From assembly GCA_032718475.1 (NCBI GenBank), contig JAUCBJ010006784.1, positions 1-45,241 on the forward strand: a stretch of DNA of 45,241 nucleotides, in the 5' to 3' direction. A program made the translations under genes and the position numbers. The notes under the pieces are model-generated. The model saw only the letters and a list, made by a program, of their open reading frames with translations. It was not told the DNA's origin and ran no database searches. This DNA is from Nemertoderma westbladi. Its lineage: Eukaryota > Animalia > Xenacoelomorpha. Position 1 is the stretch's first letter, and each line of letters starts with the position of its first letter. This document shows, one piece after another, positions 6,761-41,507 of this stretch.

Positions 6761-6873
6761 TAGGCTACTCCTACTGTATTAGTCCATTCTGCCATTACAG
6801 CATTAGGCCGACCTATTGCTGGTTTCCTATGTCTAGGCCTATGCTGCCAGTAAGGTGATCTGGTAATCGGAAG

Positions 6874-8972: not shown

Positions 8973-8996
8973 CTGAAACAAAATCATATTGTTGGT

Positions 8997-9495
8997 AAAC
9001 CAGAACACGTTAACAATGCTGAAACAGTTTGACAAGAACACGTTAACAATGCTGAGACAGTTTGACCAGAACACGTTAACAATGCCGAGACAGTTTGAAC
9101 AGAACAAGTTAACAATGCCAAGACAGTTTGACCAGAACGAGAACATGTTAACAATGCTGAAACAGTTTGGCCAGAACACTAACAATGCTGAGACAGTTTT
9201 ACCAGAACACGTTAACAATGTCGAGACAGTTTGACAACTGCACTTTAACAATGCCGAGACAGTTTGACCAGAACACGTTAACAATGCTGAGACAGTTTGA
9301 CCAGAACACGTTAACAATGCTAAGACAGTTTGGCAAGAACACTTTAACAATGCCGAGACAGTTTGACCAGAACACGATAACAGTGCTGAGACATTTTGAC
9401 AAAAACACTAACAATGCCGAGACAGTTTGACAAGAACAAATAACACGTTAACAATGATGAGACAGTTTGACAAGAACACGTTAACAATGCCGAGT
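8997..9495. repeat. 33-bp intronic minisatellite, about 15 copies
   Basis: Unit ccagaacacgttaacaatgctgagacagtttga with small indels; ends about 25 bp from the GPCR splice acceptor. Confidence 0.9.
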
Positions 9496-9544
9496 CTTAC
9501 ACCCCACAAACTAACAAAAAACATAGATATTTTATATATATACA

Positions 9545-10482: not shown

Positions 10483-10609
10483 AGGCCTAGTAGTTATCTG
10501 TATGACAGGGGTGGCGACAACATTAATGTGTCGTCCATAGGGCCACAACAGTTAACATCTGTGTCGTCCATAGGTGTAACCACTCCTACACCGCCGTGTG
10601 TTGACTCAC

Positions 10610-10779
10610 CTGATTTTCAGTCTGCGTTGTAACGGAGGTCTCAGAATAAGACGTGCTCGATCCACGGCAATAACCGTAAGCGTTGCTATGCTAACGTAGG
10701 TAGCTGTGGCCTGAATGAACAGCATAAATGTACACAAGGTGTCTCCGAAACACCAGTCCTGTAGAACCATGTTAATTCC
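10610..10779 (-). CDS. GPCR exon ECL1-TM3-ICL2
   Basis: WCFGDTLC...VSIATLTVIAVDRARLI (DRY motif as DRA). Acceptor ttccag and donor gtgagt. Exons for TM1-TM2 were not identified. Confidence 0.88.
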
Positions 10780-12653: not shown

Positions 12654-12896
12654 GAGACCGTGAGGACCAGCCAGTGCATAATCTTGTACTTTGGCAGCCT
12701 CATGGAGTGAATAAGCATGGTGGACAGCCCATTACTTTCTTGAGACGCATCTTAAAGGACACTGGCCTTAAAGATGCGGATGATCTAACAAATGTCATGG
12801 GTGATAGGGAGTTGTGGCGGCGCAATTTTGTCGACAAGCCGGCACAGCATTCTTAAAAATGCAGCTGCAATGCAGCATGCCGATACTAGTAGTAGT
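12654..12896 (+). mobile_element. 5'-truncated RTE-type LINE copy 3
   Basis: Same 3' sequence as copies 1 and 2, (TAG)n tail, 9-bp target-site duplication aaccaatca at 12645 and 12897. Confidence 0.85.
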
Positions 12897-14825
12897 AACC
12901 AATCAAAACTTTTTGATTGAAATCAAAACATTTTATAATAATATATGGAATCTTTTATTAAAAATTTGTATTATTATTATAATTATATTTGAGTAACATT
13001 TTATAGTCTGCCTCTGTTTTATTATTATCTTATTATGATGGTTGAATTGTAGGACCGTCGACTTTGTTATTATAGTCTCCGATGTCGTTGGGTTCCCGCG
13101 GGTTGTATGTACTTGCCCATATTTTCAGTAATTGTAACTAAGGAATCTATATTTTCCGGGCCATTAATTAAACTATCACTCTACCAATATAGCTTGTAGA
13201 TGACAACTTTACCTATAATATAGCTTGCTACCCATAGAGCTAATGGTTTAAGGTTGCGGTAACCAAAAAAATTGGTATTGTTTCGATTGTAACATCTGCT
13301 GCCCGGCAGTGTGATTACCAAACTGCGCACTATTGCGACATAGTTTATGTTATTTACAGACACACAACAGGGTATAAATCATTTTGATTAACATAAATTA
13401 ATGACACAGGATATAATGGAAGTATTGTACAGATATGCATTGGTGGTAAAACCGAATGCAGAGAAAATTACCTAAAATTGATGGAAGGAAATTAGAATTT
13501 ATAATTTTGTGGATAATAATTAGGAACGGGAAGTGAATACTAGAGCTTCTACTGTACATAGACGACTTGTCTACCTGAAAGGGAGTTAATGACAGTAAAA
13601 TAAAGTCTTACCAAGATGGGTTGGAGTTACTTCTATGGGGAACACAATATACCTTATGTTGTTGTGTGGCAGTGTCGTGATTAGTAATTAATTACACTTC
13701 ATAGAATGACAATACATGTCAGTTAACATTTTTCTATGGAACTTTTGGGTAAATTAATTATTAGAGAGAGTTACATTGAATTTTTTTGCTTAAATGATAA
13801 ATGAATACGTTAAAATATCTTTAAATATTATTGCATGGATGGATTTCGGTGGGGGTATGTATGAGAACTGGTGGTACTGGAGCCCAGGACCTCTGTTAAG
13901 GCTTTTACGACTAAAAACTCACATTTTATTAGCAATGCGCCGTCTTACTCCAAAACCATAGAACTAATGAGTAAGATTTATCAAATCTCTAAAAGCCACA
14001 CGCCCTGCCGTGTTCATTTTTGGTATCCTCTTTAGTATTCTCTAACCTCCTTCTTAGTGGTGGAAATGCGGCCAATAAGATACAAACTGACACAAATACT
14101 GAATTGATTGTGGGGCGAGCCACGAAGTGAGCGAAGCCTTAACATATAGGTGCCATTAACGAGTTGTCTGTCGTCGTCGTCGTCGTAAATTTTTGAACGC
14201 TAATAACTCAGTTATTCCTCGATGAAATTAAACGAAACTTTGTACGTGTATATTCCGGCAAAAGTTTAGAATGAATCGGAAGTTTGGTAAAAAAAAACGA
14301 ACGAACGCAACGAGTTTACAGTGGATACGAGTATCTTTTATTTTATTTTAATTTTATTCCACGCCTAACGGCACATAGTAAAAACGAAGTAGCACAATAT
14401 TATAATTATATATAAATACATAGCATAAAATTAATTAATTTGCTGACCCTACACTACAGACTACGCTATTCTAGAACAAGGACTACACACTGTCTATACC
14501 GCACGAAGCAAATAATTGTTCGAGTCTGTAACTCGGCCCTTAAGACTGGTACGGCATTTATATATTATATGACAAAACATAGGTATATTTAAGACACCAA
14601 AAGTGAGAGATATACTGGTTGGCTAATCGTTTGTCAAACGAGGAACCTTAAAAAGAAGCCTAGCACAGTTGTTATAAGCAACCCTCAATTTATCAAAAAC
14701 ACGCTGGGTGTAATTACGTCGAGCCCATAGACTACAACAATAAATTGGCGTTATATAAGCACGAAAAAGTGCCACTTTAACGGCAGTAGATGCATTACTA
14801 AATTTCCTAGCTAGTGTATTATTAT

Positions 14826-15346
14826 TTTGATAAGCACTACATGAGTCAGTTACTGTTCTCTTTATATATGATAAAATTCATTGACAGTCGGCAAATTAGT
14901 GAGCAGTATTGTGTGTTACCGGTAGTGTGCATGATTGTGACTGATAACTAAGCATTTCCTAAAGAATGCGCCTCATACGTGAATCATAAGCCTTACCGAC
15001 TTACCGTTGTGATTAGTATAGGTCATATCTCTGTTTATCTAGATAGAGCGCCACGTCCTAAAGGAACTGTTAATATTTCCCGAAAGTGAATAATATTAGT
15101 CAGAAATTATTTATTAACGATCAATCGAATAATACAGTAAGCTTACACTGCAATAATAATCTAAGCCCTCAGAATCCAGTCTCCCAGGTATATCCAGCGG
15201 GTGAATGGACGCGCACTAGGCTGGCTTCTGCTAATGTTGTGTTTATTGGTATTAAATATTTGTCAACTTCTAAAGTCTATTTATCAACCAAAAGACATAT
15301 AAATTTTGGCAGGTTAAACTGCTAAAGGTCTTCAAAAGCGCGTACA
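14826..15346 (+). repeat. Element B 5' LTR remnant (3' 521 bp only)
   Basis: Nearly identical to 40987-41507 (two substitutions noticed); ends gcgcgtACA. Confidence 0.9.
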
Positions 15347-15357
15347 ATAACAGTTAT
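15347..15357 (+). promoter_or_regulatory. Non-tRNA primer-binding site of B (ataacagttat)
   Basis: Directly follows the LTR, lacks TGG, and is the reverse complement of ataactgttat at 40754-40764 in B's 3' LTR. Confidence 0.75.
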
Positions 15358-16655
15358 AGTCTTTATTGCAGTAAGCCATAAAGTTGAAAGTACCGGTCGA
15401 CCAGTAAACCTGAACCGGTACTTCTGTAGGTCAGTAGGCCCAACTGCCAGAACCGGTACTGCTGTAGGTCCAACTGCCAGAACCGGTACTGCTGTAGGTC
15501 TGTAGGCCCAACTGTCCTAACCGGTACTTCCAGTATAAGTACATTAGTATTATTCGATTTTGATTATTGTATACCGGTAGGTCTTAGTATTTAATCAGGG
15601 ACGGCCGCCCTGGTTTTTTATTGAGATTTTACTTATTTCTGTCGGTTTTATTTATATGTAAGTTAATATTGAGCTGAAGACGTGTAAGTCTGCTCAGATT
15701 GTTCAGATAATTGTAGGCCGGACTGTTGTCGGATTGTTGTTGGGTTTGGAGAGATTACTGCGTGTGTAGAGTTTGTCCGATAGAGTGCCAGTTAGTAAGT
15801 TGGGGCAGCCATAGCTGTAAGGTCAATCCCCTCTTAAAGAATAAGTCGTACTACTGTGTTAGAACGCATACTAACTAACCATTTTGGAATCTGCACATAC
15901 TGTAGTTTATTTAGGCTTGACAGTATTCTGCCAACGTTTTGGCCTGTGTTTGTTTGTGTGGTCTGTTCAGGTACCGTAATAGTTATTACTCAGATATTTT
16001 GTAGGCTGGATTGTTGTCTAGCTATTATTAGGTCTGAAGAGATTGCTGCGTGTGTAGAGTTTGTCTGATAAAGTGCCAGTTAGTAAGTTGGGGCAGCCAT
16101 AGCTGTAAGGTCAATCCCCTCTTAAAGAATAAGTCGTACTACCGTGTTAGAACGCATACTAACTAACCATTTCGGAATCTGCACATACTGTAGTTTATTT
16201 AGGCTTGGTGGTAGTCTGCCAGCGTTTGGTTTGTATTTTGTTTGAGTATTCTGTACGGGTAGCGTAATATTTATTATTCAGAGTTTATGCGATTATTCGC
16301 AACATTCATGTCCCCAAGTTTATTCCTACAGTAATTGTGTTTGTTACACATACCGTTATAGTTAAATTAACCCCGGTACTACACGGGCTGCTTGGCGTAG
16401 GAAAAGACTGGTGACTTTGTGCTTCGGTCACTCCAGCAGATGCCGTGGTTCTTTTAACTGTTCAAGTATATTTAACTACTGATTATTTGTTGTACCAGTA
16501 CTTGTACCTAATTTAGGGTTTAGTGTACAGTGCTATCCGAAGTAATTAGTGTGTAGGCAGTATATTTGTGTTGTAAAGTGGTTAATAGGCACGTTGGATC
16601 TGGTAGTCCGCGGTAATTAACTTCCAGGTAGGAACACTCCGTGATACATAACGTA

Positions 16656-17943
16656 TGTAAAAGCTTCTGTGGGATGCAACTGGTCCTTCGCCCCGCGATC
16701 CAGTTTTTCCCCCATACGCTGAAATACTCTGAAACCTGCTGTAAAAGCGTTTACAGATATAATTGGATCCCCTAGCCCTCGGGGTGCTGTATAAGTGTTT
16801 TTAACGGACATAAAATAGATTCTTCTGAATGTGTGCTTTATGCGGACGTAGCAGGGTACACAACCCGCAATGCGGCATTTCACTGTCACTATGTCAAGGG
16901 AAGGATTCTGATTACGACATCTCCCAGCTGGATGATGACGTGGAGGGAGCTCTCATTGGACTCCTGGTTCCTTTGTTTTGGTCTAACAACCAATCAGGGT
17001 GATTTGCGTTTTCCTTGAAGAGATACCTACAGCAGCTCCCAAACTCAGTGTTTATGTCGTTCCATACTGCCTGAAGATCGGCTGGAATGACGCAATGTTT
17101 CTGCCTTTTTATAAGAACATTAGTAGGCTAAATTATAGAAAGCATAGCTATTATCGATTCGATCCGATTCGATCCGATTCGATTCGACACGATTCCAATT
17201 TATAACTTAACGATTCAATGCAATCTAATTATATCTTAACCTACCGTCATACTGCTTTTACTGTTTGTAATTTTGTATCAGTATAATTGGATGTTATTAG
17301 TTGAAGAATATCAATAATCAACCCACATTTTCCCAATATCTTTGATACACTACAGGTTAGAGAGAAAGGTTATGTACAACAATTGCGACTTTATTATTGT
17401 GTTTGTAGTGAATCTAATGTTGTTTGACAGACACTACCTGAGTCCAGTGCATATCTCTTTATACCTGATCAAAGTCAGTAACTGTCGGCATATCAGTGAG
17501 CAGTGTTGTGCGTTACCGGTAGCGTGCGTGATTGTAAAGTGATTGGATCTGATAATAAAGCATTCCTAAAGAATGCGCCCTATGCTTGAAATTTAAGCCA
17601 TATCGTTGTGTGTAGTATCAGTCATAACTCTGTTTACATAGGTAGAGCGCCACGTCCTAAAAGGAACTGCTAATATTTCCCGAAAGTGAATAATATTTGT
17701 CAGAGATTATATATTAGTAATCAATCGAATAATACAGTAGGCTTGACCGCAAATAAATTTAAGCCCACGAATCCAGTCTCCCGGTGTTATAAACGGGTCA
17801 TTTGGACGCGCATGGACTGGCTTCGGCTAATGTTTTTGGTTTGTTTTGTATTAAATCTTATCATCTTACAAAAGGCAGATTATCAATAAAGACATATAAA
17901 TTTCGGCAGGTTAAACTGCTGAAGGTCTATAAAAGCGCGTACA
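16656..17943 (+). repeat. Element A 5' LTR
   Basis: Direct repeat of 27216-28503 (offset 10560). TATAAG at 17110, AATAAA at 17885. Confidence 0.95.
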
Positions 17944-17954
17944 ATAATAGCTAT
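17944..17954 (+). promoter_or_regulatory. Non-tRNA primer-binding site of A (ataatagctat)
   Basis: Directly follows the LTR and is the exact reverse complement of atagctattat at 17144-17154. Confidence 0.78.
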
Positions 17955-19938
17955 CGATCTTATTTGCGGTAAGCAATAAGATTGAAAATACCGGTACTAC
18001 TACCGTAGGTCCGTAGGCCCAACTGTCATAACCGGTACTGCTGTGCAAGTACATTAGTATTATTTCGATTGTGATCTATTGTATATTGTGGGCTGCCAGG
18101 GGAATAGGGATTGATCACCCCTCATTCTTTTGTATAGTTTACTTATTTCTGTCGGTTTTATTTACTAGTAAGTTAATATTGAGCCGAAGACGTGTAAGTC
18201 TGCTCAGATTGTTCAGATCATTGTAGGCTGGACTGTTGTCTGACGGTTGTTAGGCTTGAAGATTACAGCGTGTGTAGAGAGTCTGATAGGTGCCAGTTAG
18301 TAAGTTGGGGCAACTCGTAAGTTGTAAGGTCAACCCCTATAAAGAATAAGCCGCGCTACCTTATTAGCACGCATACTCACTAACAAGTTTCGGAATCTGC
18401 ATATACTGTGGTTATTTAGGCTTGATAGTAGTCCGTCAGCGTTTATCCTGTATTGTTTGTATAGTCTGTTCAGATACCGTAATATTATTCAGATATTTTG
18501 TGGGCTGGATTGTTGCCTAGCTGTTGTTGGGTCTGAAGGAATTGCTACGTGTGTAGAGTAAGTCTGATAAAGTGCCGTTAGTAAGTTGGGGCAGCCATCG
18601 CTGTAAGGACAATCCCCTCTTAAAGAATAAGTCGTACTACCGTATTAGCACGCATACTAACTAACAGTTTCAGAATCTGCACATACAGTAGTTTGTTTAG
18701 GCTTAGTGGTAGTCTGTCAGCATTTTAGTTTGTATTTTATTTGAGTATTCTGTACGGGTAGCGTAATATTTATTATTCAGAGTTTATGCAATTACTCGCA
18801 ACATTCATGTCCCCAAGTTTATTCCTACAGTAATTGTGTTTGTTATACATACCGTTATAGTTAAATTAACCCCAGTACTACACGGGCTGCTTGGCGTAGG
18901 TAAAGACTGGTGACTTAGTGCCCCGGTCACTCCAGCAGATGCTGTGGTTCTTTTAACTGTTCAAGTATATTTAACTACTGGTTATCTGTTTTACAAGTAC
19001 CTGTACCTAATTTAGGGTTTAGTGTACAGTGCTGTCCGAGAGTAATTAGTGTAGGCATTATTGTGTTGTAAAGTAGTTAATAGGCACGCTCGTTCTGGTA
19101 GACGGCGGTAATTAACTTCTAGGTAGGAACACTCCGTAGATACATAACGTTGTACCTATAGCGCTACGGCTGTAGGTCGTCAGGCGGTGGTATTTTCCTA
19201 TCTAGACAACGCAATATTTACTTCTGCTTATTATTTTCAAATACCGTAGTATCCTGTCCGTTGAAATAACCAGGAGATCTAACCCTTTGTTAGACTGGTT
19301 AGTAGTTTCCCTGTAAAATTGCCCTAAAAATCTGTACGTACCGTTTTTGTGTGTTTATTAGAGATTGTAATCTCACCAATAGTAAGTAACTAGTAAATAA
19401 GTAACGTAGGCCAGTAGAATTATTCTGTTTAGTGTCCCATAAGTAGCACTTCACTGAAAGCGCACAGCTTCTGTGTAGTGGTATTTTACCGGAAATAGTA
19501 ACACCTATTTCAATCTTGTAACAAATCCCTTATCAGGGTATATATATATTATAAATCAACTCCAAAGATTTATAAATCAGTAGGCCTGTCATACAACAAG
19601 TAGGTCTCAATATCAGTTGGACTACTGCTTACATAACGGTAACAGAGTAAACTCAAGTAACTAAGTAACCTTATAATTTCAGAAATTCAATTATCCTAAA
19701 TAATTGATATACCGGTATCTATAATAGGCTTAATATATATTTGTATATATTTGTACTGAAATTATATACCGGTACTCTGTGACAAACCTAGTCTGCAATA
19801 ATTATATATACTGTGGGTGTATACCGGTATCCTAATATATCGTAATTAATTACCGGTACTAGGCCAACAGTCCTACTGAATTACTGGACTTGCTTTAACT
19901 GTAACTATAGCAGTAGGCATTCAACTGTATAACTAAAC

Positions 19939-22900
19939 ATGGCTGACATAAAGAAAACTCTGTCAGATAGTCTTTTAGAAACAACAGCCTGTTTCTCAGA
20001 TCAAAGTGTAGAGAATCCTAGACCGAGATCTGAGACCCCTCCTACTGTAAGAAGGGCAACCCCTGCAGTAGTTGTGTCAGAACCTAGGTTGGTAGAAGCG
20101 ATTTCGCAATTTGCTAAGTTAGTGAAGCGCCGTAGGTCTGCCATAGGCACTCGGGCCCAAGTCAAACGGAACCCAGAGGAAGCTGTCCTATCGCAGCAAC
20201 ATCCTGATCACGAACCTAGTCCCCAGCGACCCGATAGCTCCAGTAGTTCGGAGACTGTTGAGCGGACACCCGAACGCGGAGCGAAAATGGTGGATACGGC
20301 TTGTGATGAGCGGCCAACCTTTGAAGAATCAACCGACGCCCCTTCTTCTCAAGTAGAAAGCGAAGTGGAAAGCGAAGTGGAAAGCGAAGTGGAAAGCGAA
20401 GTGGAAAGCGAATTAACACCAGAAGGACCACAAAAGAGAGATGCAATTGATACCTATTTGTCAGATTATCAGCGATTCATAGGAGACAAGGAGTTGAGAA
20501 GAAGACTGCATGGATTTACACCTAATAGTGCAGGGGCTAAGCGTGTATTGGACGAACTCGATGCTGAGATGTTAGCTAAAGATCAAGCTAAATTTGATGA
20601 GGAAAGACGCATCGCTAGAGCCCAGGAAACACAAGTCCAGAAAAAACAAATAGAAGATCGAAAGGCAGCAGCAGCGGCAGAGGCAGAGGCAGCAAGCAAG
20701 CTAGCAGCGGCAGAGGCAGCAAGCAAGCTAGCAGCGGCAGAGGCAGAGGCAGAAAGAAAATTGACAGAAGCGGAAAAGAGAGCTTCTGACGAGATCGCCC
20801 AACTAGAGTTGGCAAATCTGCAAGAGACACATGATTACATCAATAAACGCGACACAGAAAGTCGAATGAAGATACTGAGTCGATCTACTTCGAAACGCCA
20901 AGGTTTTACATCCTCAGAAGAAGGAGACACTACCGACACTGAAGGTGGAAGAAATAGATCCCGTCTCAGTAGGCGTAAAAGAATGTCTCCACGTCAGAAA
21001 TTGCCTGATTTGCCTCCAGCTGTTAAGAGACAACTAGCTAGCATAGCAGTAGATAGTACAGAACCCACAGACCAAACTATTACCATTACCAGACTCCCTA
21101 CTATAGTAGATGAGCCGGAAATAATTAGGCCTGTTCTAGAAAACACCCCTTCGGTGAGAGAGACCCCTGTACTCCCCAAATCTACTACCAAACTCCCTTT
21201 ACACAGTACTATTAAATTAACGGCACCTGGTGGAGCAGCCCAAGTCCCGGTTCTGGAGACTGAGAGAGACATACAAGATCTGTCTCCCGTCGCCCCGATA
21301 CGGCCCGCTACAACGTTGGCGACTCCCGCTTCGGCGGTCGAGTGGGTTGAGAAGGGACGGCGGGAGATGAGTCTCTTGCTCGGTCAAATGCGAGAACAGC
21401 GAGACTGTTCCTCGCAACAGATCCGGGACTTAGAAGGGACTGTCTACCAACTCAAGGGAACCGTAAGGGATAGTAGGATAGAGCTGCAAGAAGTGCAGCA
21501 AAATATCGCTCTCGAGCGCGACAAATTAGTCAATATACAAAGGGGAATACCAACACCCCCTGTAACCCTGTGTCAACCTGCTAGGTCGGAAGTGTATCAT
21601 GCGCGAGGTGTGTCGCCTACACGCATATATACTGCTAGCAAAGTAGAAACACCCCCTATAACCCTGAGTCAACCTGTTAGGTCTGAAGTACATCATGCGC
21701 AAGGTGTGTCGCCTATACGCATATATACTGCTAGCGAAGTAGAAACTCCTATAGTAAACCCTATTACGGGAGACTACAAACCTGTGAATAATGATATTCC
21801 CTATAGACCTGATAATGATCTGAAAAATTTATATACCGATAATTCGATATTAAATAACACGATGGCCCAAGAAAGCTTTACGCGTCAGATGGCTAGAACA
21901 GAAGCCCGCCAAGCGGTCAAAGTGGGAGAAATTGTCAAATTCAACGGTGATGAGATGAAATGGTTACCTTTTAAAGAATATTATGAAGATAGCATACAGA
22001 ACTCTGTACTATCTAGCGGAGAGAAACTGAGATTCCTCATCAAATGTTTGGAAGGACCTCCCAAGTTAATGGCGTTGAAGTTTATTGGACATCCAAATGG
22101 ATTAAGACAAGTCTGGGATACATTAAACACCAGGTATGGTAATAAAGATAATATCGCTAAGTATTTGTATGCAAAACTGGTAGCCCCTCGAAAGTTCCTT
22201 AGTAACGAGATTATAGAGTTTTCCGATGAGATTCAAGAAATCTGCCGACAATTGGATTGGTTAGGTAAGTCCCATGAATATCAGAGCTCCATGGTCATCG
22301 GAGCCATAGTCTCTACTTTGCCAAAGGGTGGAGTATGTACACGTTGGGACAAGAAGGTGTTGCATATGATGGAGCAACAACGACGGAGCCCCACCATGGT
22401 GGATCTCATGTCATTCCTAGACCGTGAGGTCAAACTACAACTAATAAAGCAATCCAGGGAAAAAACATCGGAAAATCAGGTAAGTGAAAAACCCGTTTCT
22501 AGGAAAAGAATAATACCCGTATGTTATACTGACGACGGCGAAAGCCAGACCTCCCATGAAGAAGACAGCGGGAAAGACACAGCAAGATCCTACGATGACC
22601 ACAAAACCCCGAGAGACGTAAGTAAATACCAGCCTCGAACCAATGATAGGAGAGACAAGCTTACCAAGACCCCTCCTCAGTCTCCCAAAGGAATTCAGGT
22701 AAGCAAGCCCGAAGAACGAGCGAAAGTGCACAGCATTGCCCAAGTTAAAGTGAGTAACATCAAACCAAAATGTGCGCTGTGCGACGGGCCCCACCGTTTG
22801 AGTGCGTGTGCGGAATTCCAAAAGAAATCCCTGGCAGATAGACGTGGAGTCCTGTGGGATAAGCGGTTGTGTTATAACTGTCTCAGACGCGGACACCAGC

Positions 22901-24204
22901 GGCGAACCTGTTACTCTGACGCAAGGTGTGCTAAGTGCGGCGCGAAACATCATAGCTTATTGCACACAGAATTCGAACGAAACCACCCGAGTCAGGTAAG
23001 TGAGCCCAAATCACATGTCCAATTCAGTGATGTGAACGACACTGACCAAAGTTCTGAGTGGGAAGGATTCTATACTGACGAATTCTCTGATGCCAACGAA
23101 TCCTGTTATCTAATAAACACCGCAGTGTATCGAGCACTTACGTACGAAAAGGATAACGACACGGAGTTTCCATCAACCTCCTTGGACAAGCAACCATCTC
23201 GGAAAACTCCAACATCCAACATAGGAATACGAGAATTTCCGGTAGTCCAGGTAAGAGTTCACGGTCCCAACAAAAGTTACATAGTGAACGCCCTCCTTGA
23301 CTCAGGTAGCACCGGAACATTCATCGACAAGGAGTTAGCCGAGGATATTTTTGCTGGACAACCCAAATTCCGAACTAAGTTAAATATGTCCGGAATTATG
23401 CAGGTTTGGAAATCTACCTTAATGGCAGATTATTATATCGGCGCATTGTCCACTCCACAGGATAAATTAGGGGAACAAAGTATAGAGTCAGTAAAAATGG
23501 TGGCAATAAAGAACTTCGCTACTACTCAAGTAGAACCTTATGACTGGGACGAGGACGAGAACATCCAACATTTGGGAATACCTCGATTCCAAACTGATTA
23601 TCCTGGAGTACAAATCCTTATCGGCCAAAACGCGCATGAGGCGCTCGAGACGTTAGAGAAACAGCCTGCTCAACCGCAGCCATTACAACCTTATGCGGTA
23701 AGAACTCGAGTAGGTTGGTACTTCACTGGCCCTTCCCGCAGAACCCTTGAAGAAAGACTGTCACAAGACCGGATACTTCAAGTAAAAGCTTGGGAAGAGG
23801 AGAGCAGTGAGGTGGACGAAGCCACTGAGGGAACAACATACTCCTCAGATAGCGACGATATCAACTCCAATGTAGATCAATGGAGACATCGACCCGAGAC
23901 GATTAATCTAGCCGACATCGCTTCCAGAGGAGTAACTCCTCAAGAACGGATAGATACTCCCGGCTGGTTGGGTGGACCCGACTCCCTAAGTAAAGAAGAA
24001 GAAGAATGGCCTCCTCGTCTTGCCGCGGCGGAGATTAGACAGGCCAAGGGAGCGGAGGAAATATCACGACGGCCTAATCGCCCAGCTGGTCGTTTAGGTT
24101 TACCGGGAAGAGACCGAAAACTGTCCGGAAACCATGGAAGGCAAGATACTCTTCCTACGACCACTTCCCTAATTCGACAAATATCTAGGGACTCCATCAC
24201 GTAA
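19939..24204 (+). CDS. gag: BEL/Pao Gag-protease polyprotein (1421 aa); RT, RNase H and integrase core deleted in frame
   Basis: DUF1759-like KFNGD..KW..F...LS.GEKL.FL, the BEL triple Cys/His knuckle (CALCDGPHRLSAC, CYNCLRRGHQRRTC, CAKCGAKHHSLLH) and protease ALLDSGS. No YxDD or DDE motif. Confidence 0.92.
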   Translation: MADIKKTLSDSLLETTACFSDQSVENPRPRSETPPTVRRATPAVVVSEPRLVEAISQFAKLVKRRRSAIGTRAQVKRNPEEAVLSQQHPDHEPSPQRPDSSSSSETVERTPERGAKMVDTACDERPTFEESTDAPSSQVESEVESEVESEVESEVESELTPEGPQKRDAIDTYLSDYQRFIGDKELRRRLHGFTPNSAGAKRVLDELDAEMLAKDQAKFDEERRIARAQETQVQKKQIEDRKAAAAAEAEAASKLAAAEAASKLAAAEAEAERKLTEAEKRASDEIAQLELANLQETHDYINKRDTESRMKILSRSTSKRQGFTSSEEGDTTDTEGGRNRSRLSRRKRMSPRQKLPDLPPAVKRQLASIAVDSTEPTDQTITITRLPTIVDEPEIIRPVLENTPSVRETPVLPKSTTKLPLHSTIKLTAPGGAAQVPVLETERDIQDLSPVAPIRPATTLATPASAVEWVEKGRREMSLLLGQMREQRDCSSQQIRDLEGTVYQLKGTVRDSRIELQEVQQNIALERDKLVNIQRGIPTPPVTLCQPARSEVYHARGVSPTRIYTASKVETPPITLSQPVRSEVHHAQGVSPIRIYTASEVETPIVNPITGDYKPVNNDIPYRPDNDLKNLYTDNSILNNTMAQESFTRQMARTEARQAVKVGEIVKFNGDEMKWLPFKEYYEDSIQNSVLSSGEKLRFLIKCLEGPPKLMALKFIGHPNGLRQVWDTLNTRYGNKDNIAKYLYAKLVAPRKFLSNEIIEFSDEIQEICRQLDWLGKSHEYQSSMVIGAIVSTLPKGGVCTRWDKKVLHMMEQQRRSPTMVDLMSFLDREVKLQLIKQSREKTSENQVSEKPVSRKRIIPVCYTDDGESQTSHEEDSGKDTARSYDDHKTPRDVSKYQPRTNDRRDKLTKTPPQSPKGIQVSKPEERAKVHSIAQVKVSNIKPKCALCDGPHRLSACAEFQKKSLADRRGVLWDKRLCYNCLRRGHQRRTCYSDARCAKCGAKHHSLLHTEFERNHPSQVSEPKSHVQFSDVNDTDQSSEWEGFYTDEFSDANESCYLINTAVYRALTYEKDNDTEFPSTSLDKQPSRKTPTSNIGIREFPVVQVRVHGPNKSYIVNALLDSGSTGTFIDKELAEDIFAGQPKFRTKLNMSGIMQVWKSTLMADYYIGALSTPQDKLGEQSIESVKMVAIKNFATTQVEPYDWDEDENIQHLGIPRFQTDYPGVQILIGQNAHEALETLEKQPAQPQPLQPYAVRTRVGWYFTGPSRRTLEERLSQDRILQVKAWEEESSEVDEATEGTTYSSDSDDINSNVDQWRHRPETINLADIASRGVTPQERIDTPGWLGGPDSLSKEEEEWPPRLAAAEIRQAKGAEEISRRPNRPAGRLGLPGRDRKLSGNHGRQDTLPTTTSLIRQISRDSIT

Positions 24205-27137: not shown

Positions 27138-27207
27138 CGGTTTAGAGTATTTATGTATATTAGAAACTGTGATCTCGTATATTTTATAGACTTCAATCCC
27201 ATTTTCT

Positions 27208-27215
27208 GGGAGCGG
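27208..27215 (+). promoter_or_regulatory. Polypurine tract of A
   Basis: gggagcgg immediately precedes the 3' LTR; identical in B at 40316-40323. Confidence 0.7.
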
Positions 27216-28503
27216 TGTAAAAGCTTCTGTGGGATGCAACTGGTCCTTCGCCCCGCGATCCAGTTTTTCCCCCATACGCTGAAATACTCTGAAACCTGCT
27301 GTAAAAGCGTTTACAGATATAATTGGATCCCCTAGCCCTCGGGGTGCTGTATAAGTGTTTTTAACGGACATAAAATAGATTCTTCTGAATGTGTGCTTTA
27401 TGCGGACGTAGCAGGGTACACAACCCGCAATGCGGCATTTCACTGTCACTATGTCAAGGGAAGGATTCTGATTACGACATCTCCCAGCTGGATGATGACG
27501 TGGAGGGAGCTCTCATTGGACTCCTGGTTCCTTTGTTTTGGTCTAACAACCAATCAGGGTGATTTGCGTTTTCCTTGAAGAGATACCTACAGCAGCTCCC
27601 AAACTCAGTGTTTATGTCGTTCCATACTGCCTGAAGATCGGCTGGAATGACGCAATGTTTCTGCCTTTTTATAAGAACATTAGTAGGCTAAATTATAGAA
27701 AGCATAGCTATTATCGATTCGATCCGATTCGATCCGATTCGATTCGACACGATTCCAATTTATAACTTAACGATTCAATGCAATCTAATTATATCTTAAC
27801 CTACCGTCATACTGCTTTTACTGTTTGTAATTTTGTATCAGTATAATTGGATGTTATTAGTTGAAGAATATCAATAATCAACCCACATTTTCCCAATATC
27901 TTTGATACACTACAGGTTAGAGAGAAAGGTTATGTACAACAATTGCGACTTTATTATTGTGTTTGTAGTGAATCTAATGTTGTTTGACAGACACTACCTG
28001 AGTCCAGTGCATATCTCTTTATACCTGATCAAAGTCAGTAACTGTCGGCATATCAGTGAGCAGTGTTGTGCGTTACCGGTAGCGTGCGTGATTGTAAAGT
28101 GATTGGATCTGATAATAAAGCATTCCTAAAGAATGCGCCCTATGCTTGAAATTTAAGCCATATCGTTGTGTGTAGTATCAGTCATAACTCTGTTTACATA
28201 GGTAGAGCGCCACGTCCTAAAAGGAACTGCTAATATTTCCCGAAAGTGAATAATATTTGTCAGAGATTATATATTAGTAATCAATCGAATAATACAGTAG
28301 GCTTGACCGCAAATAAATTTAAGCCCACGAATCCAGTCTCCCGGTGTTATAAACGGGTCATTTGGACGCGCATGGACTGGCTTCGGCTAATGTTTTTGGT
28401 TTGTTTTGTATTAAATCTTATCATCTTACAAAAGGCAGATTATCAATAAAGACATATAAATTTCGGCAGGTTAAACTGCTGAAGGTCTATAAAAGCGCGT
28501 ACA
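27216..28503 (+). repeat. Element A 3' LTR
   Basis: Direct repeat of 16656-17943. Confidence 0.95.
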
Positions 28504-29535
28504 ACGTAGTACCTATAGCGATACGGCTATAGGTCGTCAGGCGGTGGTATTTTCCTATCTGGACAGTGCAATATATTTACTACTACTTATTATTTTCAAA
28601 TACCGTAGTACCCTGTCCGTTGTAATAAACAGAATTCTAACCCTTTGTTAGACTGGTTTGTAGACTTCCTGTAAAATTACCCTAAAATTTCGTACGTAAT
28701 ATTTTGTTGTATTTAATTAGAGATTTAATCTCACCCGTATCGTAAGTAATTTGTAGTATTAAGTAACTTAGGTAAATTAGAATTATCAGTTTTTAATGTC
28801 CAATAAATAGCACTTCACTGAGAGCGCACAGCTTCTGTGTAGTGACTTCCCCCAGAAATAATAACATTTATTTCAAGTATTGACAAAACCCATTTTAAAC
28901 GGGTATATAAATATTATAAATCAACTCAAACGATTTATAAATAGTAGGCCTGCCATACAACAACTAGGTCTCAATATCAGTTGGACTACTGCTTAAATAA
29001 CGGTAATAAAGTAAGTTAAAGTAACCAAGTAACCCTAAAATATTCAGAAATTCAATTATTCTAAAATAATTGATATACCGGTATTTACCATAGGCTTATT
29101 ATATTTATTTCTATAAATTTGTGCTGAAATCATACCGGTATTCTGTAATTAATTCTAGTTCATAATTATACTTATATATACTATAAGTGTAAGCTGCATA
29201 CCGGTATTCACGATAGGCCTATTATATATTTATATATATTTGTGCTAAAATTATATACCGGTATTCTGCGACAAACCTAGTCTGTAATAATACTTATATA
29301 TATTGTAAGCATACCGGTATTCTAATATATTGTATATATATCACGTTACACTGAGTAACGGTATCGGTAATCAATCGCTAGGCTTGCGGTCATACTGAAT
29401 TACCAGACTTGCTTTAACTGAAACTATAGTAGTAGACATTCAACTGTATAGCTAAACATTGTTCAAGAAACTTGTTCCCAGCGATCAGATAGCTCCAGTA
29501 GTTCGGATACTGTAGAGCTGACCCCCGAATGCGGA

Positions 29536-32500
29536 GTGCAGATGGCGGCTACAGCCTACTCGGATCCCCTTCTCACCCTTCCTGCCGCAGTGCTAACTAC
29601 TATATTGATTGCGGTGGAGGAACATCAAGCCGATTGGGTGAGAAGTAAGCGAGCGACCCAAGATAGTTATGCGGGATACGCCAGGGAAGAATTGATGTCT
29701 ATTGTCGAGTCACAATGGAACTTTCCCGGACCCGGACTCCCGTTAGATTTGTCCAAAGCTACTTGGGAAGATATACACAGGATGGGAGTGGCTAAAGATA
29801 CGATGGATCCAGCTGTTTGGAAGAGGTCGGCAGCAGGATATGTGCAGGGATTCTTCGGCTCCTTGGAGCGATTGGAAGAACAACTGTTTCGACAACCCCA
29901 AGGACCTCAAGAGCAGGAAGAGCTGCTATATCAAGTACGCGAAAGAACCCTACGCATTAGACTAATCCTATCAGCCTTTGAGGAAACTTCCAAAAGAAGA
30001 CAGGACACGTCGCTGCAGGTTGCTGTCAAAACTTGGTTCCAGCGGGTAGGTCTCAAAGTACAAGAAACGGACCAGTGGAAATCTCAGCTGTCTGAGAGAC
30101 TAACCTATGAAGAACCAACCGATGCCACCCTTTCTCAAGTGGAAGGCGAAGAGACCGCAGAGAGACCACGAACGAGAGACGCCATCGACATTTATCTGTC
30201 CGACTATCAGCGATTCCTAGGAGACGAAGAGTTGAGGAGACGGCTGTCTGGACTTTCCCCTAATAGTGAAGGAACCCAGCGTGTGTTAGACTCAATCGAT
30301 GCTGAAATGTTAGCTGCTAACCAAGCTGAATTTGATGAAAAACTCCGCCTCACTAGAGTCCAAGAAGAACAAGTAAAGAAAAAACGGATAGAGGACCGAA
30401 AGGCAGCTGCAGTAACAGCGGCAATGGCCGAAGTGGAAGCGGAAAGAAAGGCAGCGGCGGCAGAAGTAGAAGCAGAAAGAAAGGCAGCGGCGGCAGAAGC
30501 AGAAGTAGAAAGAAAGGCAGCGGCGGCAGAAGCAGAAGCAGAAAGAAAGGCAGCGGCGGCAGAAGCAGAAGCAGAAAGAAAGGCAGCGGCGGCAGAAGCA
30601 GAAGCAGAAGCAGAAATAAAAGCAGCAAAGGCAGTGGCAGAAGCAGAACGGAGAGCCTCTGAGGAGACTACCCAACTGGAGTTGGAAAATCTGCAAGAGA
30701 CGCAAGACAACATAAATAAACAGTTAACTGCTAGTCACATGCAGATGATGAGAAGATCTACTACCAAACGCCAGGGATATACGTCATCGGAGGAAAGCGA
30801 AACCACCGATCCTGAAGGCGGAGGAAATAGATCTCGTCTAAGCAGGCGTAGAAAAACATCTTACCGTCACAAATTGCCTGATTTGCCCCCAGCTGTGAGA
30901 AGACAACTAGCTAGCACAGACTAAAGTAGAATAGAACCTACAGACCAAATTATTAAGGTCAAAAAACTCCCTACTATAGTTGATGAGCCTGAAATAATTA
31001 GGCCTGTCGTTCCCAAAGTCACTCCTGTGCTAGAGACCCCTGTACTTCCAGAGCTTAACTCTAAGTTCCCTTTACACAGTACTACACTGCCTGTACCCGG
31101 TAGAACAGTCCATGAGAATATCCCTGTCCTGGAAGCTGAGAGAGAAATCAAAGATTTGTCTCCCGTCGTCCCGCGTCAGCCCGCTACAATGTTGGCGACT
31201 CCCGCTTCGGCGGTCGAGTGGGTAGAGGAGGGACGGCGGGGGATGAATTTCCTGCTCGGACAGATGCAGGAGACTGTCCACCAACTTAAGGGAACAGTAA
31301 GGGAAGGTAGGGCCGAATTGCAAGAAGTGCAGCAAAGTATCGCGCTAGAACGCGACAAATTAGTCAATATCCAAAAAGGGATGCCAATACCCCCTGTAAA
31401 ATTGTGTCAACCTGTTAGGTCTGAAGTATTACATGCGCAAGGTGTGGAGCCTACACGCATCTATACTGCTAGTGAAGTAGAAACTCCTATAGCAAACCCT
31501 ATTAAGGGTGATTATAGACCTGTTGTTAATGATATTCCTTATAGACCTGATAATGATCCGAGAAATTTATATACCGATAATTCGATATTAAATAACACGA
31601 TGGCCCAAGAAAGCTTTACGCGTCAGATGGCTAGAACAGAAGCCCGCCAAGCGGTCAAAGTGGGAGAGATCGTCAAATTCAATGGAGATGAGATGAAATG
31701 GTTACCTTTCAACGAATATTACAAAGACAGCATACAGAACTCTGTGCTATCTAACGGAGAGAAACTTAGGTTCCTCATCAAGTGCTTGGAAGGACCTCCC
31801 AAGTTAATGGCGTTAAAGTTTATTGGACATCCAGAAGGATTAAGACAAGTTTGGGATACATTAAACATCAGGTATGGTAACAAGGATAACATAGCTAAGT
31901 ATTTGTATGCAAAATTAGTAGCCCCCCGAAACTTCCTTAGTAGCGGGATTATAGAGTTTTCCGATGAGATTCAGGAGATCTGTAGACAATTGGACTGGTT
32001 AGGTAAGTCTCATGAATATCAGAGTTCCATGGTTATTGGAGCCGTAGTCTCTACTTTACCAAAGGGTGGAGTATGTACACGCTGGGACAAGAAAGTGTTG
32101 TACATGAATGAACAACAACGACGAAGCCCTACCATGGCTGATCTCATGTCCTTCTTAGATGGTGAAGTAAAACTACAACTCATCAAGCAGTCCAGAGAGA
32201 AAACATCGGAAAATAAGGTAAGTGAGAAACCCGCTTCTAGGAGAAGAGTAACACCAGTGTGTTACACTGACGACGGCGAAAGCCAAGCTTCTCAAGAAGA
32301 GGACAGTGGGAAAGACACTGGTAGATCTTACTACATTGACAAAACCTCAAAAGACGTAAGTAAATACAAAGCTCGAACCAACGATAGGAGAGAACAGGTT
32401 GCCAAGACCCCTCCTCAGTCCTCTAACAGAATGCACATAAGAAAGCCAGAACAAAGAACGAGAGTGCATCAGGTTACCCAAGGTAAAGTGAGTAACATAA

Positions 32501-35500
32501 AACCTAACTGTGCGCTGTGCGACGGTACCCACCGTTTGAGTGCGTGTGCTGAATTTCTAAAGAAATCCCTTGTAGACAGACGTGCAGTCGTATGGGATAA
32601 GCGGTTATGCTATAATTGCCTCAGACCAGGACACCAACGGCGAACCTGTTACTCCGACGTAAAGTGTGCAAAGTGTAGCGCGAAACATCACATCTTGTTA
32701 CACAGTGAGTTCGACCGAGACAACCCGAGTCAGGTAAGTGAGCCCGAACTACATGTCCAATTCAGTGATGTAAACGACACTGATCAAGAATCTGAGATGG
32801 AAGGATTCTATACTGACGAATTCTCCGACGCCAACGAATCCTGTTATCTAATCAATACCGCAGTGTATCGAGCACTTACTTATGAAAAGGACACCAACAA
32901 TGAGTTTCCCCCAACTACTTTTGCCAGACAACCATCTTGGAAAGCTCCAACTTCCAACGTAGGAATCAGAGAATTTCCTGTAGTGCAGGTAAGAGTTCAC
33001 GGTCCTAACAAAAGTTACATAGTGAACGCACTCCTTGACTCCGGCAGCACAGGAACATTCATCGATCAAGAACTAGCCGAAGATATCTTTGCTGGACAAC
33101 CCAAATTCCGGACAAAATTGAATATGTCAGGAATTATGCAGGTTTGAAAATCTACCCTAATGGCAGATTACTATGTAGGTGTGTTGTCCACCCCCCAGGA
33201 TAAATTAGGAGCACAAGGTATAAGGTCGGTAAAAATGGTGGCTATAAAGAACTTCGCTACTACTCAGGCAGACCTTTATAATTGGGACGAGGATGAGAGC
33301 ATTCAACATCTTAAGATACCTCGATTCCAGACAGATTATCCTGGAGTGCAAATACTCATCGGCCAAAACGCGCATGAGGCGCTCGAGACATTGGAGAAAC
33401 GGCCTGCTCAACCGCAGCCACTGCAAACCTATGCGGTAAGAACTAGAGTAGGTTGGTACTTTACTGGCCCTTCCCGCAGGACTCTCGAAGAGAGAATGCC
33501 ACAAGAACGAATATACCAAGTAAACGATTGGGAAGTGGAGAGCAGTGAGGTGGACGAACTAACTGAGGGAACACCATACTCCTCAGATAATGACGACATC
33601 TACCAACTCTTCGATGAAGAGAACACAATCGACCTACTTACAGAAAACCAAACTTGGAAAAATCAGGTGAACCTATGTCAACTGATTCGCCCATCGGAAC
33701 CCATCGCTTACAATGACGAACTAAACGATGAGATAGAGCGCTACAACGCTAGAACTCGGGACGAACTAGCCGTACGATTCTTTACTCAAGAACTGGTAGA
33801 GCCCAATTCATATGATAAGGCCCTATCAATAGAAGAAGAAAGAGCCAAGCAAATCCAGGAAACAACTACACGTTTTTTAAAGGACCAAGGTAGATATGAA
33901 ATCGGCCTACCATTTCGAAAACGAGAACCTAGATTTTTAAATAACAGACCCTTGGCAGAGAAAAGAATCGCTCAATTACATCGACGCCTTACGGCTAATG
34001 CTTCAGCTAAAAAAATGTACCAAACTCAGCTGAAGAAATTTATAACAAAGGGATACGCGGAGCGAGTACCGGAAGGAACACCAGTGACTGAGAGAACGTA
34101 TTACTTAACACATCATTACGTTCCCAAACCCGGTAAACCCCACGAAGTACGAGTCGTATTCGATGGCTCCGCCCTATATATGGGCCAATCCCTCAATTCC
34201 GAGTTGTTACCAGGACCCAACTTACTCCAATCTTTGTTGGGAATACTTTTAAGATTAAGACAATATTCCATCGCGTTCGCCTCCGATATAGAAGGAATGT
34301 TCTTACAAGTCAAGGCGCTGGATAGAGATAGAGACAGCCTGAGATTTCTGTGGTGGCCTGAAGGAGACCTCAATCAGAAACCGGTAGAGTACTGGATGAC
34401 CATCCAGGCTTTTGGAATCATATCAAGCCCTTCCAACGCCTGCTCCGTGGTGCGAACCACTGCGAATGACAACCGAGACTCCTTCTCAAAAGAGGTGATA
34501 GACAACATCAAACGGAATATATACATGGACGACAATTTAAGGTCCCTTCCATCAGTAGAAGAAGCCATAGATGTCGCGAAAGGAACGGTAGAGTGTTTGA
34601 AAAGAGGTGGATTTCGACTGACGAAATTCACCAGCAACTCCCGTGAGTTTCTGGAAGCGATACCGGTAGAAGACCGAGGAGCGAAAGACCTAGACTTAAT
34701 AAAGGACGATCTTCCTGAAACCAAGACGCTTGGCTTGAAGTGGGACACTGAAAGAGACATCCTGTTTTTTCAGTTAAAACAGCGAGATAATCCAGTTCGG
34801 ACCAAACGGATTTGTTTAAGTATCCTGAGCACTTATTTCGACCCATTGGGATTTATTAGCCCAGTTATATTGATTGCTCGGAGTTTAGTAACAAATGTGG
34901 CTTGAAAACCACTCATGGGACGATCCGCTTAAGGGAGAACTGTTAAAGAAATGGATGAAATGGGAAGATTCTCTACCTGCCATCGAGAACTTTATAATTT
35001 CCCGTGCATATTTTGGTCATGTTCTTCCTACGTATTCCTATCAACTCCATGTGTTTGGAGACGCCAGCGACATGGGAATAGGTATAGTAGCATATCTGCG
35101 AGTCGAAACTCCGGATGGAATCAAAGTCGCCTTGGTTACCTCTAAGGCATTGATTAACAACAAGTTAAAGGTTCCTCGAGCGGAGTTAAAGGCGGCTTTA
35201 TACGCTACAGCCATCGGCCGGAACGTAACAGAACAAATCGACTATCCACTGGAGAAAACGGTTTATTGGACCGACGCTTTACTCGTGTTGGAGTATCTAA
35301 CCAATGAAGTCTGTCAGTTCAGCGTTTTTGTTACTAACAGAGTAGCTATTATTCTTAGTCGCACAAAGATAGATCAATGGAGACATTGCCCTGGTACGAT
35401 TAATCCAGCCGATATCGCCTCCCGGGGAGCAACTCCACAGGAACTGATAGATACTCCAGACTGGTTGGGTGGACCCGACTTCCTGAGCAAGGAAGAGGAT

Positions 35501-37315
35501 GAATGGCCTCCTCACCTAACTACGGCGGAGATTAGACAAGCCAAGGGAGCGGAGACAGTCAAACCTAAAACCCGGGCGAGTAAATCGAAGTTATTTAAAC
35601 CGACTATCGATCTATCTGTATTACATACTTCCGGGAATGATGCTTCGGATCCACAATCCCTCAACACAAATAAGTCTGTTGTGGAAATTAGAGATAGAGA
35701 CTGGAAATCTGGAATACCAGACATCTCGCAAGGAATCTCACCCCTGCTGCAGAGAGCAATGCATCACTACAGTTCCTGAATTGGCTCTGTAAAGCCGTCA
35801 CGTATTTAAGGAGATGTTTTCATCATCACTACTCCAGGACGAAGACCATTAGTGATACCGCTCCATTGACATCTGCGCAAGTTCATGTTATTAAAATTTT
35901 ACCCAAATATAAAACATCCGACCGGTTTCTAAAGGAGAAAATTAGTTACCAGGAGCATGAAGAAACCAATAAGCAGATACTGAGACTCCTGCAATGCTAT
36001 GAGGATTCCGATAAGTATTTCCTATTGTTGAGAAATCCGCAGATGCGCTTAAGGGATCGATTCTCTAGCACAGTGATAGATGGGTTAATACGTGTTGGAT
36101 GTTCACAGTAAACTTTATCATGCTGGTAGAGAACGAGTTCTTAGCGAAATTCGAACTCGCTATTATTTTGATAAACCCCGTAGAGCTCTGAACCAAGTTC
36201 TTAGGAATTGCATACCCTGTAGGAAAGCATTCAGTAGGCCTTTAACACAGCGAGAGGCAGAATTACCTAGGGAACGAGTAAGCTTCTATGAACCACCTTT
36301 TACTAATACTGGTGTAGATTTATTTGGCCCTATTGAAGTATATCGTGCTAGGACTATAGTCAAGAGATGGTGTGTCATCTTCGTATGCATGACTTGTAGA
36401 GCCATCCATCTCGATATGGTGAACGATCTATCTACCAACAGCTTCGTCTTAAGTTTACGACGACAGATCGCTCGCTTCGGGACGAGTAATACCATGAGAT
36501 CGGATAAGGGAACGAACTTCATTGGTGCCAACAACGAAATACAGGCTTACGTGAAGGACTGGAACCAAAGACAGGTGGACGACCAGCTAAGGATAACAGC
36601 GTCTAGCTGGACCTTCAATGCCGCCGACGCCCCTTGGTGGGGAGGAAGTTGGGAGAGATTAATTCGAAGTGTCAAAACCGCATTTCACTTTATAGTGCCA
36701 TGCTGCGCGTATCTCACCGACGAACTTTTGCGGACGTTAATGGAGGAAATAGCTGCCTATCTCAACGAGAGACCGCTTATGCCAGTCTCATTGAGTCCCG
36801 ATTCCCTGGAAGCGCTAACACCCGCGCACTTCCTACTGAAGAAACCTGTAGCCATGCTCCCACGATCGGAGATTGCCGACGGAGACGAATACTGCCGTCG
36901 AACTTGGCAACTTATGCAGTTGCTATCCCATCGTTTCGCTGACCATTTCGAGAAACATTATCTGCCCACGCTACAACTTCGAACTAAGTGGTTTGCGCAG
37001 CAAGAAAACGTCAGCGCCGGAGATATGGTGCTTATTGTAGATCCAGACCTCCCACGTAAATGGTGGCAGACAGGTCGTATCATCGAGACTCACATCTCGG
37101 ATGATGGTTTAGTACGCTCGGTAGAACTCGTCGTCATGCGGCGTAACTTCAAGAAGCCAGGCATAATCTTTGAGACGCAACAACTCAATCGCCCAGTTGG
37201 TCGTCTATGTTTACTGGAAAGAGACAGAGAACTCTCTGGAAACTATGGAAGGCAAGACACTCTTCCCACGACCACCTCCCTAATTCCTCAAACATCTAGG
37301 GACTCCCCAACGTGA
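29536..37315 (+). pseudogene. gag-pol: Disrupted BEL/Pao gag-pol of element B
   Basis: Gag knuckles, LDSGS, RT (RVVFDGS, DIEGMFLQV, YMDD), RNase H (LHVFGDAS, YWTD) and integrase (GVDLFGP, SDKGTNF, PWWGGSWERLI). In-frame stops at 30922, 33145 and 35777, frameshifts near 34890 and 35780, and an apparent deletion near 36100. The start codon region is lost relative to A. Confidence 0.93.
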
Positions 37316-40246: not shown

Positions 40247-40323
40247 CTGTTTAGAGTATTTACATATATTAGAAACTGTGATTTTGTATATTTATAAACT
40301 TGAATCCCATTTTCTGGGAGCGG

Positions 40324-41507
40324 TGTAAAAGCTTTTGCGGATATACTCAGTCCCCCTCGCCCGCAAGGTACCGTTATAGGTGTTTTAACGGACATAAAAG
40401 TCATTCTTCGATATGTGTGCTTTGGTGGACATGGTAAGGCAAAAAACCCGCAATGCGTAAAATACCCTGGCACAGCTTAGCCTTGATGATTCAGATTACG
40501 ACATCTAACAGCTGGTTGCTGACATGGAAACGGCCATTGGACACATGGTTCTTTGTTTAGCGTAACAGCCAATCAGAGCGATTTTTTCTGTCGATGTGGA
40601 GCTTTTTGGCAGATCATGCTAGGAGTGTTCAGTCTTACTGTTTTTTCTTGATACTTTGTGTTGTTTCTATCTAGGCCAGGAACACCGGCTCTAGAGTCAA
40701 TTCGTTTTCAGACTTTTAGAAGAAACATTAGTAGGCTTAAGATTATAGAGCGTATAACTGTTATCGGTCCATATTAGTTCAATTCATAACATATCATATC
40801 TTAACCTACCGTCTTAATGCTTTTTACTGTTGTCATATTTTGTATCAGTTGGTTGAATATTATTTGGAGAACATTTATAAAGAACCCAAATTTCACAATT
40901 TTCTTGATAAACTACAGGTTAGAGAGACGGGTTATATATAGCGATTGCGACTTATATTATTGTGGTTTGTAGTGAATTTAATGCTATTTGATAAGCACTA
41001 CATGAGTCAGTTACTGTTCTCTTTATATATGATAAAATTCATTGACAGTCGGCAAATTAGTGAGCAGTATTGTGTGTTACCGGTAGTGTGCATGATTGTG
41101 ACTGATAACTAAGCATTTCCTAAAGAATGCGCCTCATACGTGAATCATAAGCCTTACCGACTTACCGTTGTGATTAGTATAGGTCATATCTCTGTTTATC
41201 TAGATAGAGCGCCACGTCCTAAAGGAACTGTTAATATTTCCCGAAAGTGAATAATATTAGTCAGAAATTATTTATTAACGATCAATCGAATAATACAGTA
41301 AGCTTACACTGCAATAATAATCTAAGCCCTCAGAATCCAGTCTCCCGGGTATATCCAGCGGGTGAATGGACGCGCACTAGGCTGGCTTCTGCTAATGTTG
41401 TGTTTATTGGTATTAAATATTTGTCAACTTCTAAAGTCTATTTATCAACCAAAAGACATATAAATTTTGGCAGGTTAAACTGCTAAAGGTCTTTAAAAGC
41501 GCGTACA
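40324..41507 (+). repeat. Element B 3' LTR (1184 bp)
   Basis: TGTAAAAGC...GCGCGTACA, same termini as A's LTR and internally diverged from it. Confidence 0.92.

Follow-up and report, generated by a model that had tools for sequence, protein, structure and literature searches.

Two related LTR retrotransposons of the BEL/Pao type in a contig of the xenacoelomorph Nemertoderma westbladi (JAUCBJ010006784.1; the whole stretch analysed, 45,241 nucleotides, is called the window below) likely use a fragment of their own transcript to prime reverse transcription, in a Tf1-like manner, judging from the complementarity encoded in their sequences. Furthermore, we think it probable that they belong to a large aquatic-animal lineage of BEL/Pao elements that dropped tRNA priming and splices its primer within the 5' LTR, such that splicing would gate reverse transcription and the unspliced 3' LTR would pass the intron on. 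The family in the window would then be an intron-free branch with a Tf1-like "pretzel", and the lineage would represent a third independent origin of self-priming beside those in gypsy and copia. The proposed mechanism is a known one, here in a superfamily described as tRNA-primed, and in the full-text literature searched we found no account of the splice-dependent variant predicted for the relatives. The first-pass annotation of the window had proposed a self-priming BEL/Pao lineage, and this idea stands, given the lack of a tRNA site, the compensatory pairing, the conservation in distant families and the candidate flanking helices of the Tf1 type; the intron-interrupted primer suggested for the relatives is a larger pattern beyond that proposal.

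According to the self-comparison of the window, the two related elements, which we call A and B, are nested, with A lying in the leader of B, and they are the only ones in the window that carry the site under study (Table 1). The LTR ends of A and B were set independently, from the divergence between the two LTR copies. A spans positions 16656-28503; its LTR copies (1288 bp each) exhibit 0 differences and it is flanked on both sides by the 5-bp target duplication ACGTA (16651-16655 and 28504-28508), and thus inserted very recently. Most of the RT, RNase H and integrase is deleted from its pol region relative to B, hence A is non-autonomous. The LTR copies of B show 2 differences over 521 bp, and the two elements align with 83% identity over 809 aligned bases around the site. 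Their assignment to BEL/Pao, already made in the first-pass annotation, is borne out by the Pfam domains DUF1759, Peptidase_A17, Integrase_H2C2 and DUF5641, found in the expected order (in B: DUF1759, protease, RT with the YMDD motif, Pao RNase H, i.e. Peptidase_A17, integrase H2C2 and DUF5641), as well as by the TG..CA ends of the LTRs, the target duplication and the purine tract. There are 1627 relatives at E up to 1e-30, and all 120 of those listed carry PF05380; among the matches listed, the nearest proteins share 40-47% identity across the RT region, and the named ones belong to fish, sea urchins, corals and a bivalve.

Table 1. Features of elements A and B in the window.
Feature	Position	Strand	Basis or remark
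A 5' LTR, TGT...ACA, 1288 bp	16656..17943	+	LTR-copy divergence
A predicted self-primer	17144..17154	+	exact complement of 17944-17954; 3' LTR copy at 27704-27714
A helix H2, LTR arm	17741..17756	+	pairs with 17960-17974; pretzel-type, crosses primer duplex
A helix H4, LTR arm, 6 bp	17806..17811	+	pairs with 17935-17940 at LTR end
ATTAAA, only poly(A)-signal-like hexamer common to A and B LTRs	17850..17855	+	inferred signal
A hairpin H3 near LTR end, 9 bp	17901..17924	+	one double change vs B 15304-15327
A primer-binding site, without TGG	17944..17954	+	directly at LTR end
A helix H2, leader arm	17960..17974	+	just downstream of primer-binding site
A open frame: Gag (DUF1759, zinc knuckles) and protease	19933..24204	+	domain search
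A purine-rich tract	27208..27215	+	no spacer before 3' LTR
A 3' LTR	27216..28503	+	LTR-copy divergence; followed by ACGTA at 28504-28508
B 5' LTR remnant	about 14826..15346	+	upstream part with primer missing
B primer-binding site	15347..15358	+	
B Gag-Pol, six pieces	29452..37315	+	stops, frame breaks
B purine-rich tract	40316..40323	+	adjoins 3' LTR
B 3' LTR, 1184 bp	40324..41507	+	
B predicted self-primer	40753..40764	+	read from 3' LTR

Several other features of the window deserve a mention. The LTR of A starts with an 84-nt extra piece (16656-16739) that is absent from B and opens with TGTAAAAGC, the same letters being found again at 16740; positions 16681-16690 match the complement of a tRNA-Tyr 3' end over 10 nt, probably by chance and not at a primer position. 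The leader is unusually long, about 2 kb (17955-19932 in A; 15359-16655 plus 28504-29451 in B), with internal repeats of 288 nt and of 30-38 nt. The region between the integrase and the 3' LTR comprises about 3 kb (37316-40323 in B, 24205-27215 in A, which differs over part of it) and, in B, includes a possible accessory gene, a frame of 260 aa (39149-39931) that shows Cys/His clusters and matches zinc knuckles weakly. Elsewhere, a frame with both Fis1 TPR domains (6859-7404), a host gene or a captured copy, lies between tandem arrays, 246-nt repeats occurring at 6424, 10155 and 12564, and a G+C-rich array occupies 42684-43855, with 95-nt units within a 306-nt higher-order repeat.

In both elements the 5' LTR is followed by a short stretch that is complementary to the element's own LTR. 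The four 11-mers that the first-pass annotation had located, two sites and two LTR partners, are indeed exact reverse complements, and in B the complement extends to 12 nt. The LTR partners are homologous in the alignment of A and B, and the two differences between the elements are compensatory, both as originally reported; since the 5' LTR of B lacks the part with the 11-mer, this comparison rests on its 3' LTR. Complements of the observed length were reached by 1 of 2000 dinucleotide-shuffled LTRs for each element, and among decoy positions within the elements, 11 nt were attained at 1 of 3080 and 0 of 3927. Thus, A and B both possess the complement of at least 10 nt to the own LTR, placed after the LTR, that is taken to characterize self-priming of the Tf1 type. 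A tRNA-type site is lacking, as had been noted: there is no TGG within the first 30 nt after either 5' LTR, nor is the 18-nt tRNA primer-binding site of the ICTV profile present in A or B. The window contains no tRNA gene, and there is no Rfam match between 14000 and 42000. In folds that run from 17100, 17122, 17140 or 17144 to 18010, the mean pair probability of the duplex in A is 0.79, 0.72, 0.88 and 0.87, respectively. The use of the TATAAG motif as a cue to the transcription start did not hold, because B reads TAGAAG at this place, and hence the motif does not fix the start site. The ATTAAA hexamer, if it served as the poly(A) signal, would make R about 700 nt long. A (TCGAT)n microsatellite (17154-17195), present in A only, starts exactly at the predicted 3' end of the primer.

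Besides the primer duplex, three further helices near the site are common to A and B. The four helices taken together have 41 pairs in A and 40 pairs in B, all intact; at four pairs both partners have changed, and one further pair is gone from both arms. Of the two flanking duplexes expected by analogy to Tf1, the one represented by H2 shows a significant run of pairs and covaries (both partners changed at one pair, and one pair gone from both arms): its 11 bp in A were matched by 5 of 500 shuffles and its 10 bp in B by 8 of 500, and by duplex energy it is significant in A only (p 0.04, compared to 0.36 in B). H4, on the other hand, is invariant in B and alone is not significant. H2 and H4 were chosen by folding these very sequences, which builds some bias towards pairing into the comparison. 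Significant flanking helices were found in 0 of the 12 relative families described below, and an extension of the duplex upstream of the primer is not significant in A, B or any of these 12.

The relatives were collected with an alignment of 33 RT-bearing sequences, which yielded 79 loci in metagenome contigs (the best 80 of 528) and a further 18 in genome contigs, with 69 families among the matches listed. The 5' LTR end could be fixed by the divergence between two LTR copies in 12 families; L067, L068, L069 and L081 (unclear ends) as well as L001 and L093 (second copies) were left out, the start of the LTR in L018 was placed manually, and L010, L018 and L073 are closely related, with sites that resemble each other. 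None of the 12 families has TGG in the first 5 nt after the LTR, and three have it at 10-12 nt. Their contiguous self-complements are mostly 6-9 nt long (11 nt in L039). If, however, an LTR segment bounded by GT..AG is skipped, 10 of the 12 families reveal a perfect complement of 10-16 nt across the junction, starting 0-4 nt past the LTR; the shuffle p is 0.02 or lower, and no more than 7 of 300 decoys do as well. GT-AG ranks among the top 8 of the 256 possible boundary pairs in all 10 families that pass the strict test; the predicted donors are gtaag, gtgag or gtacg, with pyrimidine tracts preceding the acceptors. In L039 a weaker donor was picked by the strict rule, and a gtaagt donor, with 15 nt paired, by the duplex rule. 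L085 was missed by the strict test because its predicted intron is 451 nt long, and has an 11-nt match across it; L080 matches at 10 of 11 positions, with one mismatch. The strict rule was then applied to held-out loci, 52 of the 69 outside the 12 families having enough sequence: 12 loci (11 families) gave a match, compared to 2 of 520 shuffled decoys, and 40 gave none, many of these being without an LTR or leader. A looser search of 15 loci added L003 and L023/L027 and returned nothing convincing for L068, L076 and L086. The 3' end of the predicted primer is A-C or A-T in A, B, 10 of the 12 relative families and all 12 held-out matches, which independently hints that the duplex acts as the primer.

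These results suggest that in the relatives the primer is interrupted by an intron, and therefore is not simply the first 11 genomic nucleotides of the transcript. In A and B, the complement is contiguous and has no convincing donor, so that a splice-built primer is predicted for the relatives and not for the window. A candidate intron in or around the A/B primer was rejected: B offers an 11-nt spliced alternative, which has a poor donor, is absent from A and is equalled by 54 of the 256 boundary pairs. Another interpretation, in which the sites of the relatives begin with an initiator-type "AGT" and a G:U pair, was dropped once matching donors appeared. An insect-type control, L095, has TGG 4 nt after the LTR and no self-complement, and its site matches 10 nt of a tRNA end listed in the supplements of PMC13524379. 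No relatives were found in viral contigs. Some of the records are peculiar in other respects: the L095 element (7824-13435), a full BEL/Pao element with a tRNA-type site, resides in a Wolbachia chromosome record, reflecting host contamination or a real insertion, and L080-L094 are animal BEL/Pao elements in records filed as bacterial MAGs, most likely misbinned host contigs. The L026/L027 contig shows three identical BEL/Pao copies head-to-tail that share single LTRs, which may be an assembly artefact; similar tandem arrays are reported for integrase-independent insertion of Tf1.

The screen of related families, proposed together with the original prediction, thus shows that self-complementarity is kept with different letters in distant families. 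The letters of the site differ in nearly every family, yet in the table of cognate and non-cognate pairings the own LTR is the best or jointly best match in all 10 relatives compared there. This argues against the alternative that the pairing serves packaging, dimerisation or translation control as a real RNA structure, while a host RNA (tRNA half or another small RNA) or some unknown route accounts for priming. This explanation, which we regard as improbable, draws on the partly palindromic nature of both sites, since dimer-initiation sites are palindromic: the B site is a near-palindrome, whose LTR partner is also identical at 10 of 11 positions as a direct repeat, and the A site holds an 8-nt palindrome. 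However, the A site is not a full palindrome, and its 11 pairs are kept nonetheless. It is also true that tRNA halves prime some Ty1/copia lineages that lack a TGG site, according to PMC6317226. Against this, the last 8 nt of either primer are absent from the published table of metazoan tRNA ends (PMC13524379 supplements).

The position of the site also speaks against this explanation, as it starts 0-5 nt from the LTR end, and its offset tracks the spacer at the other cDNA end. In 19 of the 20 families scored (7 + 12, none discordant; Spearman 0.87; the end of the purine tract was defined after the data were seen), the duplex starts at the LTR end if, and only if, the purine tract adjoins the 3' LTR. 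Such a link would follow from a duplex that sets the cDNA end, with both cDNA ends being made blunt or overhanging together. The offset trait changes only 4 times on the tree, so that well supported branches offer just 2 independent pairs (p 0.5). In the tree, another check that had been proposed, B groups with 77 aquatic-type rows against L095/L096 (support 100) but is a long branch. Quick trees do not separate loss of the intron in A/B from its never having been present (AU p 0.47). All trees were calculated without L093, L094 and L097, whose matches are short.

Self-priming could also operate in trans, with the primer supplied by a separate short or processed LTR transcript, originating from solo LTRs, early termination or, in the relatives, a spliced small RNA. 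Plentiful LTR-derived RNAs are to be expected, as the family is very abundant in four host sequencing runs (assembled contigs); moreover, the loop of about 800 nt is long and the relatives are without pretzel helices. Nonetheless we find this variant very hard to favor, because the compensatory changes are in cis, each element's LTR matching its own site, the fold predicts the cis duplex with high probability, and a precise 3' end would still be needed. The run search listed eleven runs, all as contigs and none recorded as RNA; the four compared reveal a subfamily that splits off just past the primer (joint 17155-17194), and the joints in the run contigs are not GT..AG; in runs X1 and X3, 7 other letters replace the (TCGAT)n of A in this subfamily. 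Run X1 holds no variant at a frequency of at least 4% in either 11-mer and adds no covariation, the family being known from two alleles only (A and B). Finally, chance complementarity of A+T-rich, partly palindromic sequence, to which the mere two elements in the window, their A+T-rich LTRs and their near-palindromes might point, is scarcely credible and largely refuted by the shuffles, the decoys, the homologous position, the double changes and the replication of a self-complement with the own LTR in more than 20 other families.

Self-priming in cis can be envisaged as follows. In Tf1, RNase H cleavage frees the primer. In A, RNA polymerase II would start at or somewhat upstream of 17144, and the 5' part of the transcript would fold back over about 800 nt onto 17944-17954, where the flanking helices would keep it. 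The element's RNase H would cut after 17154 and free a 3' OH, from which the RT would copy U5 and R back to the cut before jumping to the 3' repeat, which would restore the primer sequence. The fold-back and transfer steps are modelled on Tf1, as described in PMC4600332 and PMC10085805. In the relatives, where the GT..AG intron in the LTR would split the primer, splicing of the cap-proximal 5' copy only would form it. As the cut would lie downstream of the intron and copying would stop there, the 3' copy would serve to complete the new LTR, and an unspliced 3' copy would thereby hand the intron on. This 3' copy would have to stay unspliced for the intron to persist, and its splicing would yield an intron-free family like that of A and B. 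The best reading of A and B is as a putative intron-free form of the split-primer scheme.

The replication of BEL/Pao elements is described as poorly understood and assumed to be tRNA-primed (PMC8742986). We found no description of self-priming or of a spliced primer in BEL/Pao in the full-text literature (subscription journals, Repbase Reports, GyDB and bioRxiv supplements being outside its scope). If our scenario is true, each of the three main LTR superfamilies includes self-priming elements, and animals harbor them on a large scale. Programs that require a tRNA site would overlook or misname such elements, and silencing by 3' tRNA fragments would find no target site in them (PMC12853362). 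The split form would also explain the persistence of an intron in an element copied through RNA; it predicts one exon junction per family, and this junction should mark the 5' end of the genomic RNA but be missing from the 3' end.

With the Belpaoviridae, A and B share the DUF1759 Gag with a triple zinc knuckle, the order protease, RT, RNase H and integrase, the LTRs, the purine tract and the 5-bp duplication; the profile of that family, however, gives an 18-nt site for tRNA-Arg or tRNA-Gly and priming by a host tRNA (PMC8742986), which A and B lack; this site is a descriptive trait, whereas the family itself is defined by its RT. The host range reported for Sinbad/Sailor and Suzu coincides with the aquatic animals that harbor the nearest named proteins of A and B among the matches listed. 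Sinbad/Sailor as their clade is thus a lead only, set by host range, and the main text of the four papers that report this range makes no mention of a PBS or tRNA. Self-priming has been predicted for plant lineages of gypsy (Tcn1) and copia (TAR/Houba/Osr-1), as opposed to the BEL/Pao elements studied here. The rule used for those predictions (PMC6317226) is a complement of at least 10 nt starting 0-5 nt after the LTR; A and B conform to it, and split primers would escape it, since the contiguous match in the relatives is mostly 6-9 nt.

The closest parallel is provided by Tf1/Tf2/Tj1 and the Tf1/sushi group, in which, as in A and B, a short site directly after the 5' LTR is complementary to the element's own LTR. 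The Tf1 pretzel consists of three duplexes, and its helices join the sequence adjacent to the site to the LTR downstream of the primer (PMC10085805); A and B may be alike in this respect, H2 having the matching geometry. The start of the site is similar, ATAAC in Tf1 according to PMC11042837, ATAAC in B and ATAAT in A. On the other hand, the loop of about 800 nt is unlike that of Tf1, and the start and cleavage in A and B are predicted ones. The relatives of A and B appear to have an intron-split primer, a feature that the published descriptions of Tf1/sushi, in the parts examined, do not report. The Tf1/sushi elements are Ty3/gypsy chromoviruses, whereas the domains of A and B are of the Pao type, and hence the two elements, though they would work like that group, are not members of it.
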